DNA from: Shigella phage KNP5
Length of the DNA: 64,000 bases
Sequence record: KX452698
Reading direction: 5' to 3' (one strand)
How positions within the stretch are numbered: position 1 is the stretch's first letter; every line of letters begins with the position of its first letter. Below, piece after piece: positions 21,256 through 64,000 of this stretch. The notes under the pieces are model-generated. The model saw only the letters and a program-made list of their open reading frames with translations. It did not search any database and had not been told where the DNA came from. A program made the position numbers and the translations under genes.

Positions 21256-24200
21256 ATGGCCGAGATTAAAAGAAAGTTCAGAGCAGAAGATGGTCTGGAC
21301 GCAGGTGGCGATAAAATAATCAACGTAGCTTTAGCTGATCGTGCCGTAGGAACTGACGGTGTTAACGTTGATTACCTAATTCAAGAAAACACAGTTCAAC
21401 AATATGATCCAACTCGTGGATATTTAAAAGATTTTGTAATCATTTATGATAACCGCTTTTGGGCTGCTATAAATGATATTCCAAAACCAGCGGGAGCTTT
21501 TAATAGCGTACGTTGGAGAGCATTACGTACTGATGCAAACTGGACAACTGTTTCGTCAGGACCTTATCAATTAAAGTCAGGTGAATCAATTTCAGTTAAT
21601 ACTGCAGCAGGAAATGATATCACATTTACTTTGCCAACTTCTCCAATTGATGGAGATACTATCGTTCTTCAAGATATTGGTGGAAAACCTGGAGTTAACC
21701 AAGTTTTAATTGTAGCTCCAGTGCAAAGTATTGTAAACTTTAGAGGCGAACAAGTACGATCAGTACTAATGACCCATCCAAAATCACAGATAGTTTTAAT
21801 TTTTAGTAATCGTCTGTGGCAAATGTATGTGGCTGATTATAGCAGAGAAGCGGTAGTTGTGACGCCAGCAAGTCTCTACCAGGCGCAGTCAAACGATTTT
21901 ATCGTGCGTAGATTTACTTCCGCTGCGCCTATTAATATTAAACTTCCGAGATTTGCTAATCATGGCGATATTATTAATTTCGTTGATTTAGATAAATTAA
22001 ATCCTCTTTATCATACAATTGTTACTACATATGATGAAACTACATCAGTACAAGAAGATGGAACTCATTCCATTGAAGGCCGTACATCTATTGACGGTTT
22101 CTTGATGTATGATGATAACGAAAAACTGTGGAGATTGTTTGACGGGGATAGTAAAGCACGTTTACGTATCATAACGACTAATTCAAATATTCGTCCAAAT
22201 GAAGAAGTTATGGTATTTGGTGCGAATAACGGAACAACTCAAACGATTGAGCTTCAGCTTCCGACCGATATTTCTGTTGGTGATACTGTTAAAATTTCCA
22301 TGAATTACATGAGAAAAGGGCAAACAGTTAAAATCAAAGCTGCTGGTGAAGATAAAATTGCTTCTTCAGTTCAATTGTTGCAATTCCCAAAACGTTCAGA
22401 ATATCCACCTGAAGCTGAATGGGTGACTGTTCAAGAATTAGTTTTTAACGGTGAAACTAATTATGTTCCAGTTTTACAGCTTGCTTATATAGAAGATTCT
22501 GACGGAAAATACTGGGTTGTACAGCAAAACGTTCCAACAGTTGAAAGAGTTGATTCTTTAAATGATTCTACTAGAGCAAGATTAGGCGTGATTGCTTTAG
22601 CTACACAAGCTCAAGCTAACGTCGATTTAGAAAATTCTCCACAAAAAGAATTAGCAATTACTCCAGAAACATTAGCTAACCGTACTGCTACAGAAACTCG
22701 TAGAGGTATCGCAAGAATAGCAACCACTGCTCAAGTGAATCAGGATACTACATTCTCTTTTGCTGACGATATTATCATCACTCCTAAAAAGCTGAATGAA
22801 AGAACTGCTACAGAAACTCGTAGAGGTGTTGCTGAAATTGCTACACAGCAAGAAACTAACGCAGGTACTGATGATACTGCAATCATCACTCCTAAAAAGC
22901 TTCAAGCTCGTCAGGGTTCTGAATCATTATCAGGTATTGTAACCTTTGTATCTACCGCAGGAGCTACTCCAGCTTCTAGTCGTGAATTAAATGGTACAAA
23001 CGTTTATAATAAAAACACTAATAATTTAGTTGTTTCGCCTAAAGCTCTGGATCAGTATAAAGCTACTCCAACACAACAAGGTGCAGTAATTTTAGCAGTT
23101 GAAAGTGAAGTAATTGCTGGACAAAGTCAAGAAGGATGGGCAAATGCGGTTGTAACGCCAGAAACGTTACATAAAAAGACATCAACTGATGCAAGAATTG
23201 GTTTAATTGAAATTGCTACGCAAAGTGAAGTTAATACAGGAACTGATTATACTCGCGCAGTCACTCCTAAAACTTTAAATGACCGTAAAGCAACTGAAAG
23301 TTTAAGTGGTATAGCTGAAATTGCTACACAAGTTGAATTCGACGCAGGCGTCGACGATACTCGTATCTCTACACCATTAAAAATTAAAACCAGATTTAAT
23401 AGTACTGATCGTACTTCTGTTGTTGCTCTATCTGGATTAGTTGAATCAGGAACTCTCTGGGACCATTATACCCTTAATATTCTTGAAGCAAATGAGACAC
23501 AGCGTGGTACACTTCGTGTGGCTACACAAGTTGAAGCTGCTGCAGGAACATTAGATAATGTTCTAATAACTCCTAAAAAGCTTTTAGGTACTAAATCTAC
23601 TGAAGCGCAAGAAGGCGTTATTAAAGTTGCAACTCAGGTTGAAACTGTAGCTGGAACGTCAGCAAATACTGCTGTATCTCCAAAAAATTTAAAATGGATT
23701 GTACAGAGTGAACCTACTTGGGCAGCAACTACTCTGGTAAGAGGTTTTGTTAAAACTTCATCCGGTTCAATTACATTCGTTGGTAATGATACCGTTGGTT
23801 CAACACAGTCATTAGAATTATACGAAAAAAATAGCTATGCAGTATCGCCATATGAATTAAACCGTGTATTAGCAAATTATTTGCCGTTAAAAGCAAAAGC
23901 TGCAGATAGTAATTTATTGGATGGTCTAGATTCATCCCAGTTCATTCGTAGGGATATTGCGCAGACGGTTAATGGTTCACTAACCTTAACACAACAAACG
24001 AATCTGAGTGCCCCTCTTGTATCATCTAGTACTGCTACGTTTGGTGGATCAGTTTCGGCAAATAGTACACTAACTATTTCTAATACTGATGGAACAGCAA
24101 CTCGTCTGATTTTTGAGAAAGGACCTCAAACTGGAACGAACCCGGCTCAAACGATGACAGTCAGCGTGTGGGGGAATCAATTTAGTGGGGAATCAAACAC

Positions 24201-25128
24201 AACACGTTCTACCGTATTTGAAGTTAGTGATGAAACATCTTATCACTTTTATTCTCAACGCGATAAAGATGGTAATATAGCATTTAGCATTAATGGTACT
24301 GTAATGCCAATAAATGTGAATGCTTTAGGTTCTTTGAACGCGAACGGCGTTGCAACATTCGGTAGTTCAGTTACTGCTAATGGCGAATTTATCAGTAAAT
24401 CGTCGAATGCTTTTAGAGCAATAAACGGTGATTATGGATTCTTTATTCGTAATGATGCTGCTAACACCTATTTTATGCTTACTGCATCGGGCGATCAGAC
24501 TGGTGGATTTAATGGATTACGTCCATTAACTATTAATAATGCATCTGGTCAAGTAACGATTGGTGAAAGCTTAATCATTGCCAAAGGTGCTACTATAAAT
24601 TCAGGCGGTTTAACTGTTAACTCGAGAATTCGTTCTCAAGGTGTTAAAACATCTGATTTATATACCCGTGCGCCGACATCTGATACTGTAGGATTCTGGT
24701 CAATCGATATTAATGATTCAGCCACTTATAACCAGTTCCCGGGTTATTTTAAAATGGTTGAAAAAACTAATGAAGTTACTGGACTTCCATACTTAGAACG
24801 TGGCGAAGAAGTTAAATCTCCTGGTACATTGACTCAGTTTGGTAACACACTCGATTCGCTTTACCAAGATTGGATTACTTATCCAACGACCCCAGAAGCA
24901 CGTACCACTCGCTGGACGCGTACATGGCAGAAAACCAAAAACTCTTGGTCAAGTTTTGTTCAGGTATTTGATGGAGGTAACCCTCCACAACCATCTGATA
25001 TCGGTGCTTTACCATCTGATAATGCTATAATGGGGAATCTTACTATTCGTGATTTCTTACGAATTGGTAATGTTCGCATTATTCCTGACCCAGTGAATAA
25101 AACGGTTAAATTTGAATGGGTTGAATAA
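21256..25128 (+). CDS. 34: long tail fibre proximal subunit gp34
   Basis: 1290 aa; repeated ATQxE..GT...ITPKKL tail-fibre repeats; late promoter TATAAATA upstream. Confidence 0.92.
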   Translation: MAEIKRKFRAEDGLDAGGDKIINVALADRAVGTDGVNVDYLIQENTVQQYDPTRGYLKDFVIIYDNRFWAAINDIPKPAGAFNSVRWRALRTDANWTTVSSGPYQLKSGESISVNTAAGNDITFTLPTSPIDGDTIVLQDIGGKPGVNQVLIVAPVQSIVNFRGEQVRSVLMTHPKSQIVLIFSNRLWQMYVADYSREAVVVTPASLYQAQSNDFIVRRFTSAAPINIKLPRFANHGDIINFVDLDKLNPLYHTIVTTYDETTSVQEDGTHSIEGRTSIDGFLMYDDNEKLWRLFDGDSKARLRIITTNSNIRPNEEVMVFGANNGTTQTIELQLPTDISVGDTVKISMNYMRKGQTVKIKAAGEDKIASSVQLLQFPKRSEYPPEAEWVTVQELVFNGETNYVPVLQLAYIEDSDGKYWVVQQNVPTVERVDSLNDSTRARLGVIALATQAQANVDLENSPQKELAITPETLANRTATETRRGIARIATTAQVNQDTTFSFADDIIITPKKLNERTATETRRGVAEIATQQETNAGTDDTAIITPKKLQARQGSESLSGIVTFVSTAGATPASSRELNGTNVYNKNTNNLVVSPKALDQYKATPTQQGAVILAVESEVIAGQSQEGWANAVVTPETLHKKTSTDARIGLIEIATQSEVNTGTDYTRAVTPKTLNDRKATESLSGIAEIATQVEFDAGVDDTRISTPLKIKTRFNSTDRTSVVALSGLVESGTLWDHYTLNILEANETQRGTLRVATQVEAAAGTLDNVLITPKKLLGTKSTEAQEGVIKVATQVETVAGTSANTAVSPKNLKWIVQSEPTWAATTLVRGFVKTSSGSITFVGNDTVGSTQSLELYEKNSYAVSPYELNRVLANYLPLKAKAADSNLLDGLDSSQFIRRDIAQTVNGSLTLTQQTNLSAPLVSSSTATFGGSVSANSTLTISNTDGTATRLIFEKGPQTGTNPAQTMTVSVWGNQFSGESNTTRSTVFEVSDETSYHFYSQRDKDGNIAFSINGTVMPINVNALGSLNANGVATFGSSVTANGEFISKSSNAFRAINGDYGFFIRNDAANTYFMLTASGDQTGGFNGLRPLTINNASGQVTIGESLIIAKGATINSGGLTVNSRIRSQGVKTSDLYTRAPTSDTVGFWSIDINDSATYNQFPGYFKMVEKTNEVTGLPYLERGEEVKSPGTLTQFGNTLDSLYQDWITYPTTPEARTTRWTRTWQKTKNSWSSFVQVFDGGNPPQPSDIGALPSDNAIMGNLTIRDFLRIGNVRIIPDPVNKTVKFEWVE
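22684..22827 (+). repeat. direct DNA repeat inside gene 34 (24 bp identical, two copies 120 bp apart)
   Basis: ACTGCTACAGAAACTCGTAGAGGT at 22684-22707 and 22804-22827, encoding TATETRRG of the tail-fibre repeat units. Confidence 0.7.
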
Positions 25129-25136
25129 GAGGTATT

Positions 25137-26252
25137 ATGGAAAAATTTATGGCAGAGTTTGGACAAGGATATGTCCAAACGCCATTTTTATCGGAAAGCA
25201 ATTCAGTAAGATATAAAATAAGTATAGCGGGTTCTTGCCCGCTTTCTACAGCAGGTCCATATGTTAAATTTCAGGATAATCTTGTTGGAAGCCAAACATT
25301 TAGCGCGGGTCTTCATTTAAGAGTTTTTGACCCTTCCACCGGAGCATTAGTTGACAGTAAGTCATATGCTTTTTCGACTTCAAATGATACTGCATCAGCT
25401 GCTTTTGTTAGTTTCATGAATTCTTTGGCGAATAACAGACTTGTTGCTATATTAACTAGCGGAAAGGTTAATTTTCCTCCTGAAGTAGTATCTTGGTTAA
25501 GAGCAGCAGGAACGTCTGCTTTTCCATCTGATTCTTTATTGTCAAGATTTGACGTATCATATGCTGCCTTTTATACTTCTTCCAAAGGAGCTATTGCATT
25601 AGAACATGTTAAACTAAGTAATAGAAAAAGCACAGATGACTATCAAACTATTTTAGATGTTGTATTTGACAGTTTAGAAGACGTTGGAGCTACAGGATTT
25701 CCTAAAAGAACATATGAAAGCGTGGAGCAATTTATGTCAGCAGTCGGTGGAACTAATAACGAAATTGCACGTTTACCAACTTCATCTGCGATAAGTAAAC
25801 TCTCTGACTATAATTTAATTCCTGGCGATGTTCTTTATCTTAAAGCGCAGTTATATGCTGATGCAGATTTACTTGCGCTTGGAACTACAAATATATCTAT
25901 CCGTTTTTATGATGAATCGAATGGATATATTTCTTCAACACACGCTGAGTTTACTGGACAAGCTGAGTCATGGGAATTAAAGGAAGATTATGTAGTTATT
26001 CCAGAAAATGCAGTAGGATTTACGATATATGCACAAAGAACTGCACAAGCAGGTCAAGGCGGCATGAGAAATTTAAGCTTTTCTGAAGTATCAAGAAATG
26101 GTGGAATTTCAAAACCTGCTGAATTTGGCGTTAACGGTATTCGAGTTAATTATGTCTGCGAATCTGCTTCACATCCGGATATAATGGTACTTCCTACACA
26201 AGCATCGTCTAAAACTGGTAAAGTGTTTGGACAAGAATTTAGAGAAGTTTAA
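25137..26252 (+). CDS. 35: long tail fibre hinge protein gp35
   Basis: 371 aa; N-terminus MEKFMAEFGQGYVQTPFLSESNSVRYK as recalled for T4 gp35. Confidence 0.85.
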   Translation: MEKFMAEFGQGYVQTPFLSESNSVRYKISIAGSCPLSTAGPYVKFQDNLVGSQTFSAGLHLRVFDPSTGALVDSKSYAFSTSNDTASAAFVSFMNSLANNRLVAILTSGKVNFPPEVVSWLRAAGTSAFPSDSLLSRFDVSYAAFYTSSKGAIALEHVKLSNRKSTDDYQTILDVVFDSLEDVGATGFPKRTYESVEQFMSAVGGTNNEIARLPTSSAISKLSDYNLIPGDVLYLKAQLYADADLLALGTTNISIRFYDESNGYISSTHAEFTGQAESWELKEDYVVIPENAVGFTIYAQRTAQAGQGGMRNLSFSEVSRNGGISKPAEFGVNGIRVNYVCESASHPDIMVLPTQASSKTGKVFGQEFREV

Positions 26253-55420: not shown

Positions 55421-55657
55421 TTAACCACCTATTTGTGTAGGCGTAAACATTGCAGCATTCTTAGTTTTCCAATCAGCTGCATCAGAAACTACGGTAGAAT
55501 ATGCTGCCTTTTCAGAAGGAAAGATCTGATAATGAGAATCTGCGATACGATGCTCGTTAGAATAAATTTCAAACGGAACAGAAACTTCCATACCTTTAAC
55601 TTCTTTGCCTTCACCTGCTGGATGAGTAAAGGTCTTGATGTTAACGAAACCACCCAT
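55421..55657 (-). CDS. soc: small outer capsid protein Soc
   Basis: 78 aa; VNIKTF...FPSEKAAYSTV matches T4 Soc as recalled; followed by hairpin terminator. Confidence 0.8.
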   Translation of the reverse strand: MGGFVNIKTFTHPAGEGKEVKGMEVSVPFEIYSNEHRIADSHYQIFPSEKAAYSTVVSDAADWKTKNAAMFTPTQIGG

Positions 55658-55699
55658 AATAAACTCCTTTATTGTTTAATTACAGGTGTATTTATATCA

Positions 55700-56218
55700 T
55701 CAATAACCTCGGTCTTGACGAGCGAAGTTTTCAGCATTTTTCAGATAATAAAGTTTAAAGATTTCTTCAGCAGTAAGACCGAGACCTTGGAACATGTTCA
55801 GAACGAAATGAAGAATATCAATCATTTCGAATTTAATTTCCAACTGGTCTTGTGGAGACAAATCAGTAATTAAAGTTTCACGGCGTTCACCATGCTGTGA
55901 CTTCCAAGGTTTCCATACAGCAGATGCATCTTTTTCACCATTACTCATACCACCAAGAGAAGTCAGTAGTTCGCGGAATTCATCATCAATATAATCTTTC
56001 TGATTACGCAACCAATCAACAACTTCACCTGCAGTAGCCAAATCATCAGGATGACGGTTATATTCAGGTTTATCTTTAGCTAAACGAACCTGTAGAGATT
56101 TCTGCATATCAAGCATAACCTGCAGCGGGTCTTTTTCATCACCGAGAATATCCCAGTATTCATTTTGAGCTTTATCAGCGCCTTCAATCAGTTGTGAACA
56201 TTCATTAAAGTATGCCAT
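55700..56218 (-). CDS. 56: dCTP pyrophosphatase gp56 (MazG-like)
   Basis: Start trimmed to MAYFNECSQLIEG; about 172 aa. Confidence 0.85.
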   Translation of the reverse strand: MAYFNECSQLIEGADKAQNEYWDILGDEKDPLQVMLDMQKSLQVRLAKDKPEYNRHPDDLATAGEVVDWLRNQKDYIDDEFRELLTSLGGMSNGEKDASAVWKPWKSQHGERRETLITDLSPQDQLEIKFEMIDILHFVLNMFQGLGLTAEEIFKLYYLKNAENFARQDRGY

Positions 56219-57988: not shown

Positions 57989-58046
57989 GATAATCTCCTC
58001 AGTAGTTTATGTTTATAGTATCTCAATTTCCAATAAAAGTAAACAA

Positions 58047-58346
58047 TTATTTTAAAACTTCTGCATAATCACATGTTACAAACTGTTTCTCTAACTTGAC
58101 GATTTTACGAAAGTATCTTTTGCATTGGCGAATCTGTCGCTTCGTAGGGCGCACAGCAAACTTAATAAATTCTACTCGACCAGATGGAGGACTTTCTTCT
58201 GGTGGAATATCTAATACCAATTCCCACGTATCTGCAATAAGTGCTTTGAATTGAGTATTTTTCCTGACGTTATACGGTGTAGGTTTAAATAAAACAATAT
58301 GCATATTATCCTCGGCAATCCACTTCGCATACTTTCTTGTCATCAA
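58047..58346 (-). CDS. hypothetical protein, 99 aa (61.4-like by position)
   Basis: ORF track. Confidence 0.5.
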   Translation of the reverse strand: MMTRKYAKWIAEDNMHIVLFKPTPYNVRKNTQFKALIADTWELVLDIPPEESPPSGRVEFIKFAVRPTKRQIRQCKRYFRKIVKLEKQFVTCDYAEVLK

Positions 58347-58488
58347 TGAAAGCTTTAACTAATGCTTTATTAACTTCAGCATATTGAGTAGTAGCCCATT
58401 GAACGTCATCTTTCATCATTGTGATTTCTTTAGTAAACATGCTTTCATTCTTAAACCACCCCATAAAAACTACCTTTACCAATTCCAT
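58306..58488 (-). CDS. dmd: Dmd (discriminator of mRNA degradation; RnlA/LsoA antitoxin mimic)
   Basis: 60 aa; MELVKVVFMGWFKNE... consistent with T4 Dmd as recalled; immediately upstream region of gene 41. Confidence 0.7.
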   Translation of the reverse strand: MELVKVVFMGWFKNESMFTKEITMMKDDVQWATTQYAEVNKALVKAFIDDKKVCEVDCRG

Positions 58489-58513
58489 AACAATCTCCTC
58501 ATTTAACCAACAA

Positions 58514-58547
58514 GACTACTATACCATAGTCTTGTCGGCTTGTAAAC
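58514..58547 (-). promoter_or_regulatory. T4-type early promoter upstream of dmd
   Basis: Minus-strand GTTTAC, spacer containing CAAGACT..AGTCTTG inverted repeat, TGGTATAGT. Confidence 0.5.
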
Positions 58548-59974
58548 TAAAATTTTAATTCATTTGCCAAAGCATCTAACTGAGCTCGAGCAGATTCGTT
58601 TCTTTGATAGCGATTCTGCTCAGCCTGAATCTGCTGTGAACCTGCTACTTCGTTCACTTCAGTTGGAGTAGAATCTTGTTCAATTTCTACCCATTTCTGA
58701 TTTCCTTTTTGAACACCCATCAAAAACTTATTCCATTTATTCTTATCACCGTATCGTGATTTGATTTGCTTAATGAGTTGTTGTTCAGCAGCTGCTAGCT
58801 CCTCGGTTTCAATGACCGCAAGCATAAAATCAGCTGTTGCTGGAAGACCGGCAGATTCTGCAATATCGCTCATGTTAACATCAGAAGAATCCCAAGCTTG
58901 CTTACCAACCTGTGCTGCGGTCCAAAGAACAGTTTCGGTTTCAACAGCCAGAGCGCGCAATTCCTCTGCAATAGCTTTAACAGTCGTGTAACTATTTTCT
59001 GAATAAACTCTAATGCGGCAAGATTTACAAATACCCAGATAGTCAACAATAATGATTGTTGGAACAAAATTCTTCTTGAGCTTCAATTCGTTCAAAAGCG
59101 ACCGAAATGTATTAGCGTCTGCTCCACCAGTAGGATATTGCTTAACGATTAAACGACCGAGAGTAGATTTCTCACGCCATTTTTCCATTTTTCCTTTATA
59201 CTCAGCGTAAGAAATATGCCCGTCATCAATGTCATCAAGAGAAACATCAAGCATATTAGCGTCAATACGCTTAGCACAAACTTCTTCTGCCATTTCCATG
59301 GAAATGTAAAGAACATTATGTCCGAGCTGCAAATAATCTGCTGCCAATGAACACAGACCTAATGACTTACCGACGTTAACACCAGCCATTAAAACGTTCA
59401 GTGTTCCAGTTTCAGCTCCGCCTTTAGTAATTTTATTTAGAATTTTGAGTTTAAATGGAACCTTACGAGCTTTATTCATATAAGATAGCCAACGTGCTTC
59501 GTAGTCATCCATCCAATCATGACCAACGTAGCTATCAAATGAAATTGATAATGCTTGGCGCATGATGTCAGGAATAGCACCTACATCTGGCATTTTCTTA
59601 TTTCGTTTTTCCGGAGGAAGCTCAGCATTAGTTTGAATTTCAATTATTTTAGACGTAGCATTAAACATCGCCCTTTGCTGAACATATTTTTCTGTTTCTT
59701 TTACTAACCAGCTGTGGTCTTCTGGAGAATCGGCTAGTTTCGAAATAAGTGTTTTTACACCAGAATATTCTGTTTCAGTAAATGAACTATTTTCTAATGC
59801 AACATTTAACGCATTAATAGATGGAACGCTATGGTACTCATTAACATGAGATTTAATTAATTTGAATGTATTTTTAGCTGGACCACTTTCAAAATATTCT
59901 GAATCCATATATGGCCAAACTTTTGAAAAATAAGCTTGATCAAATATGAGATGAGAAAGAATAATTTCTACCAC
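58547..59974 (-). CDS. 41: replicative DNA helicase gp41 (DnaB family)
   Basis: 475 aa; Walker A GVNVGKS; size and position. Confidence 0.95.
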   Translation of the reverse strand: MVEIILSHLIFDQAYFSKVWPYMDSEYFESGPAKNTFKLIKSHVNEYHSVPSINALNVALENSSFTETEYSGVKTLISKLADSPEDHSWLVKETEKYVQQRAMFNATSKIIEIQTNAELPPEKRNKKMPDVGAIPDIMRQALSISFDSYVGHDWMDDYEARWLSYMNKARKVPFKLKILNKITKGGAETGTLNVLMAGVNVGKSLGLCSLAADYLQLGHNVLYISMEMAEEVCAKRIDANMLDVSLDDIDDGHISYAEYKGKMEKWREKSTLGRLIVKQYPTGGADANTFRSLLNELKLKKNFVPTIIIVDYLGICKSCRIRVYSENSYTTVKAIAEELRALAVETETVLWTAAQVGKQAWDSSDVNMSDIAESAGLPATADFMLAVIETEELAAAEQQLIKQIKSRYGDKNKWNKFLMGVQKGNQKWVEIEQDSTPTEVNEVAGSQQIQAEQNRYQRNESARAQLDALANELKF

Positions 59975-59983
59975 ACTTACTCC

Positions 59984-60346
59984 TTAAAAGAATTTAAATT
60001 TTTTCTTTGACCTTTTATTAAATGCATCTTGTAGTTGCATTGTAATACATTTTTCTACATGAGGAGCTAACTCAGCTTTTCTTTCTTGGTCAAGAACAGC
60101 AAAGTCCATTACGACTTTTCCATCAACCCAATCTAATTTTGTCACATACACAATGTGTGTAGAACCGTCTTCTAGTTTAATGACAATCTCCTGGATAACA
60201 TTTTCCATGGCAGATTTAATTATCTTAAGAGATTCATTAAAAAGACGTTCTTTTCTTTCTTCTTCCCCCTCCGAAGAGGGGGATTCGTCGATAATTTCTA
60301 GATCTAAATCTAAATCATCTTTATTCATTAAATTCTTCCATATCAC
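59984..60346 (-). CDS. 40: head vertex assembly chaperone gp40
   Basis: 120 aa (possibly 114 from second ATG); position between uvsX and 41. Confidence 0.6.
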   Translation of the reverse strand: MIWKNLMNKDDLDLDLEIIDESPSSEGEEERKERLFNESLKIIKSAMENVIQEIVIKLEDGSTHIVYVTKLDWVDGKVVMDFAVLDQERKAELAPHVEKCITMQLQDAFNKRSKKKFKFF

Positions 60347-61502
60347 TTAACTGATCTAGGTCAGTTTCTAAATCAGCTGCTGATTTACTTTTACTTTCTG
60401 GAGATTTAAATTTTTCAACCTTTGAGTTAATCAATTCATCAACTTCAGCTTCAACAATTTCATTACTATCAATAGCACCTAACTGATAAGCACGTTTAAT
60501 AGCATCTCGGAATGGTTGATGCTTAAATAAAGGACCCCAGAATGTAGTGCAGTTGGTATCTTTTGCACGCCAAGATTTTTCTTCGCGAATCATCTCACCG
60601 GTTTCTTCGTCAAGAAATTCACGAGCATACCAGCCATTTTTAGGTTTTACCACAAATCCTAATTCAAGAGCCATATCTAACAATCCAGAATAAGGATCGA
60701 TACCACCGTCAAATTTAACATCAATAAAGAATTTACTTTTTTCTTTAACGGTACGAGATTTTTCTACATTTAGAACAAATTGATACCCCTGAAGATCAGA
60801 ACCATCTTTAATCTGGCGCTTACCGATAATGAATACAGTATCAGCCGAATACATTACGCCTGTACCACCTGTCATCACGGTTTTACTAAACATTTCAATT
60901 GTTTCAATTGTATGGTTAACCGCAACACATGGAATGTTTTTAATACTAAAATAAGGAGTAACAATACGGAATAATGACTTCAGTGATTTAGCACGAGTCA
61001 TATCTGCCACAGATTTTTCATTCAAGGCATCTTCCGTTTCTTTCTTAGAAGCCATATTACCGATTGAGTCGATGAATACAATAACTTTTTCACCACGCTC
61101 AATAGCTTCAAGCTGATTCACCATATCAATTTTCAGCTGTTCAACTGACTGGATTGGTGTATGAATTACTCGTTCCGGGTCAACTCCCATGGATCGCAAA
61201 TAAGCTGGAGTAATACCAAATTCGCTATCATAAAATAGACAAACCGCGTCAGGATATTTGTTCAAATACGCCGCAACCATAGTCAAAGACATATTTGATT
61301 TAAAGTGTTTAGAAGGACCTGCAAAAATGGTTAAACCAGACTGCATACCACCATCAATCGCACCAGAAATAGCGATATTAAGCATTGGAATTTTTGTACG
61401 GATTACATCCTTTTCATTAAAGAATTTAGATGTAGTCAGTTCAGCAGTCATTTTAGAAGTGGAAGCTTTAATCAAACGGGATTTTAAATCTGCAATAGAC
61501 AT
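60321..61502 (-). CDS. uvsX: UvsX recombinase (RecA-like)
   Basis: 393 aa; sequence closely matches T4 UvsX as recalled. Confidence 0.95.
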   Translation of the reverse strand: MSIADLKSRLIKASTSKMTAELTTSKFFNEKDVIRTKIPMLNIAISGAIDGGMQSGLTIFAGPSKHFKSNMSLTMVAAYLNKYPDAVCLFYDSEFGITPAYLRSMGVDPERVIHTPIQSVEQLKIDMVNQLEAIERGEKVIVFIDSIGNMASKKETEDALNEKSVADMTRAKSLKSLFRIVTPYFSIKNIPCVAVNHTIETIEMFSKTVMTGGTGVMYSADTVFIIGKRQIKDGSDLQGYQFVLNVEKSRTVKEKSKFFIDVKFDGGIDPYSGLLDMALELGFVVKPKNGWYAREFLDEETGEMIREEKSWRAKDTNCTTFWGPLFKHQPFRDAIKRAYQLGAIDSNEIVEAEVDELINSKVEKFKSPESKSKSAADLETDLDQLSDMEEFNE

Positions 61503-61579
61503 TCATTTTTTCCATAGGCAACATTATATTTTCCTCACTGGTTAAAGATAGAGTAATTATAACACAATAAATTTAGGCA

Positions 61580-62428
61580 TTAATCAACTGCTATTGGATG
61601 AATAGCATTAAACTTATGAAACGCTTCTGATTTTTCTTTGCGTGAAACACACATGCGAAGAACCTTTAATGGCTCGTCTTCTTCACCCAACGATTTTCTC
61701 TTTTCAATATTCGATGTTTTCCAACGAGCTTGCTCTGGAAACTCTCTATTGATTTGCTCAAGAGCTCTATTATGTTTTGAATTACTACGAATTGAACTAC
61801 ATCCGCCAGGAGCCTGTGCTTTTCCAGACACAACCAGATATTTGAACAAGGCCAAATGCGGATAACCTTGATTAATTAAATTGAGAAATGCATACATATC
61901 TTCGCATAAATCAATTTTTCCATACCCAATTTGTTCTGTTGTAAGTTTCCCGAGGTCATACCAAGTATTCGTGAATCCATATGAATTTTCACGATAATTA
62001 CCCCAAGATGAAGTAATTTTAAAAATAGGTAGACGAGCATGACCGTGATAATACCCGCAATCCATGGCATCTTCAACGTATTGAATCAATTCATAGAACT
62101 GTTCACGAGTTAACTGATTAATTTTATCTACGCAGCGACGATCATCTTTCTTTCGCATTGAACTCATACGAATAGTAGTATCATCATCAATCATCCAGAT
62201 TCGTTGACCTGCATACATATCAGTAATTGCTTTACGAGTACCAGCAATTCCATTAACATCATCAGGAATAGTTATAATTTTAGCTCTAGACCCATAAGCG
62301 TCATAATAAGCTTTTTCTTCATGTTCACGTACTACAATATGAGGTTCATAATCAGTCGGAAACATATCAAGGGCAGAAACTGCCCCTACGCGTTGATAGC
62401 TTGGAATTACAAATTGAATCATTTCCAC
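61580..62428 (-). CDS. GT-A family glycosyltransferase at the beta-gt locus (probable beta-glucosyl-HMC alpha-glucosyltransferase-type)
   Basis: 282 aa; DxD-type motif IDDDTT; located between uvsX and 42 where T4 has 351 aa beta-gt. Confidence 0.6.
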   Translation of the reverse strand: MEMIQFVIPSYQRVGAVSALDMFPTDYEPHIVVREHEEKAYYDAYGSRAKIITIPDDVNGIAGTRKAITDMYAGQRIWMIDDDTTIRMSSMRKKDDRRCVDKINQLTREQFYELIQYVEDAMDCGYYHGHARLPIFKITSSWGNYRENSYGFTNTWYDLGKLTTEQIGYGKIDLCEDMYAFLNLINQGYPHLALFKYLVVSGKAQAPGGCSSIRSNSKHNRALEQINREFPEQARWKTSNIEKRKSLGEEDEPLKVLRMCVSRKEKSEAFHKFNAIHPIAVD

Positions 62429-63159
62429 TCACCACTATAATCTTTTTTCGCAATATGGGTTTCGCCAGTTTTCCACCAATGGTCAACCAAATAAAAATGA
62501 CGGGAATACACATGAAGGCTTCCGACATTCCATATAATAGAACCTGCTTTATACTGACGAGTTGAATCACCTGCATTCAAATCAGATACTAATTTATCTA
62601 GTACGTATTTTTGCCATGCATAATCATTACGGAATCCGAAGACCACGTCATTTGAACGCATGCTTACTACTGCATTGACTTTCTTATCACGAATCAGGTA
62701 CTGTACTGTATTCGTACACATGAAATCTGACATACCATCTTTATTGTAGTCAAACTGCATGGATGGACGAGTATAAATCATGATACCGCGTCGAGAATCA
62801 GGATTTTGACCAAGTTCAGCTAAACACATATCATATTGGGCATAGTTATCTTCTGACCAGATGGCCCAACCATAATTCGAATTAATTTCGCCTTTAGAAG
62901 ATGCTACCTGCTGCCAAATCTTCGGTGTTTCACCCGGAATATCTTTAACAAACAAACTTTTAGATTTATACCATTCAAGTTCACGCTGAATGTATTCATC
63001 ATTAAGAGCGCCAAAAATAAACGGTTCATCTGCTACAAATGATGCGCCAATAATTTCAATAGTTTTAACGCCAGTTTTATCAACTACGAAATCTTTTTCC
63101 TTTAATGCAAGCCCCAAATGAAGACGGATTTCTTCAACTGTCATAGAGTCACTAATCAT
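62419..63159 (-). CDS. 42: dCMP hydroxymethylase gp42
   Basis: 246 aa; thymidylate-synthase-like fold; size and position. Confidence 0.92.
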   Translation of the reverse strand: MISDSMTVEEIRLHLGLALKEKDFVVDKTGVKTIEIIGASFVADEPFIFGALNDEYIQRELEWYKSKSLFVKDIPGETPKIWQQVASSKGEINSNYGWAIWSEDNYAQYDMCLAELGQNPDSRRGIMIYTRPSMQFDYNKDGMSDFMCTNTVQYLIRDKKVNAVVSMRSNDVVFGFRNDYAWQKYVLDKLVSDLNAGDSTRQYKAGSIIWNVGSLHVYSRHFYLVDHWWKTGETHIAKKDYSGEWK

Positions 63160-63166
63160 TTAAACC

Positions 63167-63316
63167 TCAATTGATACATTCATATTTAACTTGTAACAGT
63201 AATAAACCCCAACCTATAATAAGTGTCGGAATCATACAAGGAACCGTTACGCTATAGTATATACTTATTATAATCATCAAGATTAAAAGCAATACTGCTA
63301 AAATTTTGCTTTTCAT
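63167..63316 (-). CDS. small membrane peptide, about 49 aa
   Basis: Manual translation; ATGA overlap with imm stop; coordinates approximate. Confidence 0.3.
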   Translation of the reverse strand: MKSKILAVLLLILMIIISIYYSVTVPCMIPTLIIGWGLLLLQVKYECIN

Positions 63317-63564
63317 TCCTTCTCTCTGATGATAATTACTTGATTTGGTTGTGCAGATTTTTTAGTTTCACCCGCAATTGACCAAATAAATGTAATAAAC
63401 CAACCAATAATTGACCAGTTAAACAGTAAAAATGTAAAAAAGATTCCTACTGTCGATTTTGACCCACGCATCAAGGCGATGAACCACGGAAGCATGTATA
63501 TAATAATAGCCAACACGCCTGAAACTAAAACCATAAAAATTGAACCTGCTACTAAAGTTTCCAT
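63313..63564 (-). CDS. imm: superinfection immunity protein Imm
   Basis: 83 aa; two TM helices; position next to 42. Confidence 0.85.
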   Translation of the reverse strand: METLVAGSIFMVLVSGVLAIIIYMLPWFIALMRGSKSTVGIFFTFLLFNWSIIGWFITFIWSIAGETKKSAQPNQVIIIREKE

Positions 63565-63571
63565 GTTTTCC

Positions 63572-63952
63572 TCACTTAGTCAAATTTTTTACGCATGAAT
63601 TATAAGAATTCACTACATACTCCATCGGAGCATTTTTACCAGTACGCCATTGGTAATTATTAGCCCAATTAGCCCAAAGTTCAGCACAGTAGTTTTCAAT
63701 TTTTTCTTCACGTGTAATTACATCTGAATTACGATATGCTTGAGCAGATTCATCTGGACGAATAGCTTCGTCAAAATTCGCCTGCATTTGTTCTACTGTC
63801 TGTTTTGGAGCTTCTTTATAACACTTAACATTAGGATTATAAAATTTGCTTGAACAATTTACAATTTTTCCTGCATCAGACTGATTTACTACTGGTCCTT
63901 GAGCTACACAACCAGTAAGACCTAATGCAATAACCAAAATAGCGATTTTCAT
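63572..63952 (-). CDS. putative lipoprotein, 126 aa
   Basis: Signal peptide with lipobox LTGC. Confidence 0.5.
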   Translation of the reverse strand: MKIAILVIALGLTGCVAQGPVVNQSDAGKIVNCSSKFYNPNVKCYKEAPKQTVEQMQANFDEAIRPDESAQAYRNSDVITREEKIENYCAELWANWANNYQWRTGKNAPMEYVVNSYNSCVKNLTK

Positions 63953-64000
63953 AACAATTTCCTCAAATACAAGTAGTAATTACTCCAGTAGTGCTTATAC

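Follow-up and report, generated by a model that had tools for sequence, protein, structure and literature searches.

The gene lying between uvsX and gene 42 in Shigella phage KNP5 (record KX452698) very probably encodes a T2/T6-type β-glucosyl-HMC-α-glucosyltransferase (ba-gt, also ggt or TAGT), which adds a second glucose, and not the β-glucosyltransferase (β-gt) that T4 carries at this place. This reading rests on comparisons of the gene and its predicted protein within a stretch of 64,000 nucleotides, called the window throughout. Publications on T2, T6 and many Tequatrovirus phages have already described this enzyme along with its fold, locus and effects, and the present analysis adds nothing new to them.

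Identity of the glucosyltransferase

The predicted protein is 100% identical in amino acid sequence to AEK12306 of ime09, which is annotated as beta-glucosyl-HMC-alpha-glucosyl-transferase, and to a sequence of KNP1, where it is unannotated. Both T2 records share 276 of 280 residues with it (98.6%), the differences being R11H, K92R, I101V and P251S with the T2 residue given last. The T6 record MH550421 differs by five substitutions (Y40N, D55G, K92R, I101V and R106H), leaving aside the stop codon of that record. A profile search for the glycosyltransferase family, proposed as a check in an earlier note on this DNA, matched Pfam PF20691 (TAGT, TET-associated glycosyltransferase) at 38.8 bits and 1.2e-9, with a cut-off of 27.5 bits, and PHROG 842 (beta-glucosyl-HMC-alpha-glucosyltransferase) at 5.6e-89; NCBIfam held no match for the protein. 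BLASTP found no similarity to either GT-B enzyme of T4, β-gt (E = 14) or α-glucosyltransferase (α-gt; E = 2.1 over 49 residues), and neither of the corresponding Pfam families was matched. The earlier note had taken the gene to be distinct from T4 β-gt and to be the T2/T6-type second-glucose enzyme, and both statements agree with these results; the strong homology to T4 β-gt that it had named as counterevidence was looked for and is absent.

Codon comparison with T2 showed 39 differences, 35 synonymous and four non-synonymous, and comparison with ime09 showed 13 synonymous and no non-synonymous differences. Because the codon differences are overwhelmingly synonymous, the gene is considered to be under purifying selection.

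Locus, reading frame and surrounding genes

The open reading frame list places the gene at 61580..62428 on the minus strand, with 282 codons counted from a GTG, confirming the position given in the earlier note. Its length of 282 aa holds for this mechanical reading frame; translation almost certainly begins two codons further in, at the ATG at 62422, which would give a protein of 280 aa. All nine aligned homologues open with M(xx)IQFVIPSY, and the two additional residues encoded from the GTG have no counterpart among them. The GTG at 62428 was therefore dropped in favor of the ATG, at whose equivalent the homologues begin. The orthologous coding sequences of T2 and ime09 are annotated as 843 nt, corresponding to 280 aa, and likewise overlap gene 42. 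On the basis of the ATGA overlap, these 843-nt coding sequences and the homologue N termini, the gene is taken as 61580..62422 (Table 1). The overlap is compatible with translational coupling of gene 42 and the glucosyltransferase, as we infer from the arrangement. Just within the gene, minus-strand positions 62368-62388 could form a terminator-like hairpin, which was considered as a possible attenuator after gene 42 and rejected: the fold of the 91-nt region is not unusually stable, with a z of -0.73 against shuffles. A promoter and terminator scan of 61300-63400 returned sites no more numerous than in shuffled sequence, and the window contains no tRNA genes.

Table 1. Features of the glucosyltransferase locus and of the predicted protein, in window coordinates
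Feature	Position	Strand	Remarks
Glucosyltransferase CDS (ba-gt / ggt / TAGT)	61580..62422	-	280 aa; stop codon 61580-61582
GTG opening the mechanical 282-codon ORF	62426..62428	-	Probably not the real start
ATGA overlap	62419..62422	-	Glucosyltransferase ATG 62422-62420, gene 42 TGA 62421-62419; read from sequence
Gene 42, dCMP hydroxymethylase	62419..63159	-	97.6% aa identity to T4 gp42; T4 annotation
uvsX recombinase, downstream neighbor	60321..61502	-	90.3% aa identity to T4 UvsX
Gene 56, dCTPase/dUTPase, hmC pathway	~55703..56218 (tblastn coordinates)	-	73% aa identity to T4 gp56
Cassette without nucleotide homology to T4	61491..62436		946 nt; stands for T4 23556-25496, 1941 nt (segA + β-gt)
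IPSYQR motif, residues 6-11	62390..62407	-	First strand of nucleotide-sugar binding domain; model strand 2-6
IDDDTT motif, residues 78-83	62174..62191	-	DxD motif, putative metal / UDP-sugar binding, end of β strand
E174-D175 (CED)	61898..61903	-	D175 invariant in family alignment

The placement between uvsX and gene 42 stated in the earlier note is borne out by the flanking reading frames, which are 90% and 97.6% identical in amino acid sequence to T4 UvsX and gp42, respectively. It was also right that T4 encodes its 351-aa β-glucosyltransferase here: β-gt occupies the syntenic place, together with segA, which the note had left unmentioned. The order uvsX, glucosyltransferase, gene 42 is the same in T2, T6 and ime09. 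When window positions 58001-64000 were compared with T4 by blastn, homology stopped at 61490 and restarted at 62437, on either side of the cassette. Window-wide tblastn found no copy of three genes that T4 carries in the region: segA, in whose place 77 nt (61503-61579) separate uvsX from the glucosyltransferase; segF, which in T4 lies beside gene 56; and the dam methyltransferase gene, which in T4 stands between genes 56 and 61. Lack of a Dam-like gene has been associated, as a correlation only, with the group of phages that has about two-thirds gentiobiosylated 5-hydroxymethylcytosine (gentiobiosyl-hmC) (PMC13390438).

Divergence from T4 is uneven across the surrounding region. At 55436-56218 the proteins of gene 56 (dCTPase) and soc are 73% and 46% identical to those of T4, while the nearby replication genes 61, 41 and 42 stand at 97-99.6%, the reading frame at 58547..59974 being 99.6% identical to gp41. 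These identities mark the gene 56/soc stretch as a locally divergent, mosaic patch. UvsX, at 90%, likewise lies below the products of genes 40 (100%) and 41 (99.6%). Its gene adjoins the cassette breakpoint at 61490, and the divergence there is consistent with recombination near the replacement of segA and β-gt.

Megablast retrieved the TAGT gene from 494 phage records and T4 β-gt from 29, the latter mostly T4 stocks and close relatives. By this count of sequence records, T4 is the exception, and TAGT is the usual occupant of the locus in T4-like phages. In RB55 (KM607002) and RB59 (KM607003), a gene 100% identical to T4 β-gt carries the label 'beta-glucosyl-HMC-alpha-glucosyl-transferase'. 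The label looks like a mix-up in the annotation of public records and could mislead surveys based on names.

Predicted fold and glucosylation pathway

The description of the protein in the earlier note as a GT-A enzyme with a DxD-type motif is in keeping with the structural model, in which a single Rossmann-like α/β/α nucleotide-sugar binding domain, the mark of GT-A enzymes, is predicted and the aspartates D79, D80 and D81 follow a strand at 74-79. The model is of moderate quality, with a mean pLDDT of 70.9 and three loops below 50; residues 71-80 have a mean pLDDT of 88. The IDDDTT motif reported in that note is present, and its three aspartates are invariant among 10 sequences. Near the N terminus, I6, P7, S8, Y9 and R11 of the IPSYQR motif are invariant in the family alignment. 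Neither the protein nor the family profile retrieved a solved structure of the family from the PDB by sequence search; the single profile match was the GT2 enzyme AvpGT (9jma) at an E of 0.23, a weak match in which IPSYQR aligns to IPTYNR and IDDDTT to LDDDD. Overall, cellular inverting GT2 enzymes of GT-A fold (AvpGT 9jma, SpsA 1h7l, TarP 6h1j and BcsA) are about 7-15% identical to the phage protein. Unlike them, the phage enzyme would use as its acceptor a sugar on duplex DNA. It also differs from them in a basic C-terminal region of ~70 aa: residues 208-280, the last 73, have a pI of 9.4, compared to 5.7 for residues 1-207, and are not covered by the Pfam domain. That this region might help to bind DNA is no more than a guess.

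GT-A enzymes of the GT2 type use the DxD motif to bind a divalent metal together with the diphosphate of their UDP-sugar; a conserved aspartate serves as the base toward the acceptor hydroxyl, and the reaction proceeds with inversion at the anomeric carbon. By analogy, the DDD at residues 79-81 may bind both the metal and the diphosphate here. The base would be a conserved acidic residue, most likely D175, a candidate suggested by its conservation and by comparison with the catalytic aspartate of inverting GT2 enzymes. The anomeric carbon would be inverted as in those enzymes. Inversion of UDP-α-glucose would yield a β linkage, which matches the β-1,6 bond of gentiobiose.

The pathway proposed for the phage would begin with the products of gene 42 and gene 56, which would supply hydroxymethyl-dCTP and thus 5-hydroxymethylcytosine (hmC) in phage DNA. 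An α-glucosyltransferase, expected ~10 kb beyond the window from the arrangement in KNP1, would put the first glucose on hmC. The 280-aa single-domain GT-A enzyme would then use UDP-glucose to attach a second glucose, in β linkage, to the 6-OH of the first, giving gentiobiosyl-hmC. The resulting DNA is expected to contain naked hmC, α-glucosyl-hmC and gentiobiosyl-hmC, with no β-glucosyl-hmC, and the actual ratios of these sugars would be a further inference. Gentiobiosyl-hmC amounts to about 5% in T2 and about 72% in T6. Since the enzymes of these two phages are nearly identical, the extent of gentiobiosylation is not predictable from sequence.

The earlier note had also called for a check of the α-gt locus elsewhere in the genome. 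By tblastn, neither α-gt nor β-gt occurs in the 64-kb window, and the T4 gene order puts α-gt beyond its end. The last 16.3 kb of the window match Escherichia phage KNP1 (Tequatrovirus pss1) with 99.9% identity, and KNP1 carries, about 10-11 kb further on, an α-gt that is 90.5% identical to the T4 enzyme. The check is thus answered by proxy: the near-identical KNP1 suggests that the α-gt partner is present.

Alleles, alternative readings and host defences

Public records of the T2 and T6 genes contain several changes. Both T2 records, AP018813 (4283-5125) and MH751506 (3286-4128), carry H11 and S251. The window allele has R11 and P251, the first invariant and the second nearly so in the family alignment. 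Possibly, R11H and P251S weaken the T2 enzyme and explain its low level of gentiobiosylation in comparison with T6, and the pSs-1-like phage of the window glucosylates heavily, as T6 does; we put this forward tentatively and think it rather unlikely as a whole. If true, it would be a matter of allele strength and not a new kind of system. In the T6 record MH550421 (4138-4980), codon 10 is changed from CAG to an amber TAG, and the coding sequence is annotated from M20 with 261 aa. In the other, AP018814 (2135-2974), a 3-nt deletion in GATGATGAT turns IDDDTT into IDDTT and leaves 279 aa. That two T6 records each carry a different change is odd for a phage known for 72% gentiobiosyl-hmC; the changes could reflect loss in laboratory passage or sequencing error.

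Three other readings of the window gene were weighed against the T2/T6-type enzyme. Its position, the syntenic slot of T4 β-gt, is the one point in favor of a diverged homologue of that GT-B enzyme placing a single β-glucose on hmC. The T4 enzyme has hmC phage DNA as its substrate and forms a β-glucosidic bond, as the window enzyme is expected to do. However, the two differ in fold, GT-B in T4 and predicted GT-A in the window, and lack any sequence similarity; T4 β-gt acts on naked hmC, whereas the window-type enzyme would act on α-glucosyl-hmC, and the T4 gene is accompanied by the homing endonuclease gene segA. The sequence and fold comparisons refute such a homologue, to which we assign next to no probability. 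Hardly more credible is an inactive remnant, which would leave DNA with α-glucosyl-hmC and naked hmC only. Both public T6 records are altered, by the amber codon 10 and by the one-codon deletion in DDD, so that laboratory culture may tolerate loss; the window allele, however, is intact and has every one of the 40 residues that are invariant in the alignment, the gene is under strong purifying selection, and the protein is unchanged in ime09 and KNP1.

A TAGT of other specificity, for example a first-sugar transferase acting on naked hmC or an enzyme with a donor other than UDP-glucose, is improbable as well, though somewhat less so than a remnant. Many phages carry solitary TAGT homologues, and TAGTs pair with either an α-GT or a β-GT, which indicates that specificity varies in the family (PMC13216743). 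Against this stand the 98.6% identity of the protein to that of T2 and its closeness to the genetically tested T6 enzyme, its differences from T2, which never depart from family-invariant residues, and the α-gt partner in the near-identical genome of KNP1. The T2/T6-type second-glucose enzyme is hence the reading we retain. The window gene shares with T2/T6 ba-gt the locus between uvsX and gene 42, the length of 280 aa and the DDD and IPSYQR motifs, and its predicted GT-A fold is the one reported for the T6 TAGT.

This type of enzyme has been described in several studies. The T2/T6 enzyme, named TAGT (PF20691), adds glucose to α-glucosylated cytosine to form 5-gentiobiosyl-methylcytosine, and an AlphaFold3 model gives the T6 TAGT a GT-A fold that is sister to GT2; the combination of α-GT with TAGT is common, and the T4 pair of α-GT and β-GT is rare (PMC13216743, NAR 2026). 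The TAGT position is syntenic with that of T4 β-GT, and HPLC/MS of Tequatrovirus phages with α-GT and TAGT detected 5-hmdC and its α-glucosyl and α-gentiobiosyl forms, with the β-glucosyl form absent; the Durham phages form two classes by ratio (PMC13390438, AEM 2026). T6 with ba-gt deleted contains only α-glucosyl-hmC and shows increased sensitivity to the glycosylase Brig1, which DNA of gentiobiosylated T6 withstands in vitro (PMC11078745, Nature 2024). Loss of ba-gt in T6 also alters sensitivity to the BapA defence; the glucosidase BapA is unable to strip gentiobiose (PMC13160076), and GmrSD, in a published example, still targets gentiobiosyl-hmC. The expectation in the earlier note of a glucosylation pattern different from that of T4, with effects on defence, is thus in line with what is known from the T6 orthologue and other Tequatrovirus phages (PMC11078745, PMC13160076, PMC13390438, PMC13216743) and would apply to the window phage by analogy. 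The gene sets which sugars sit on hmC and hence which host defences can act, and its identification is of use for phage annotation and for the prediction of host range.
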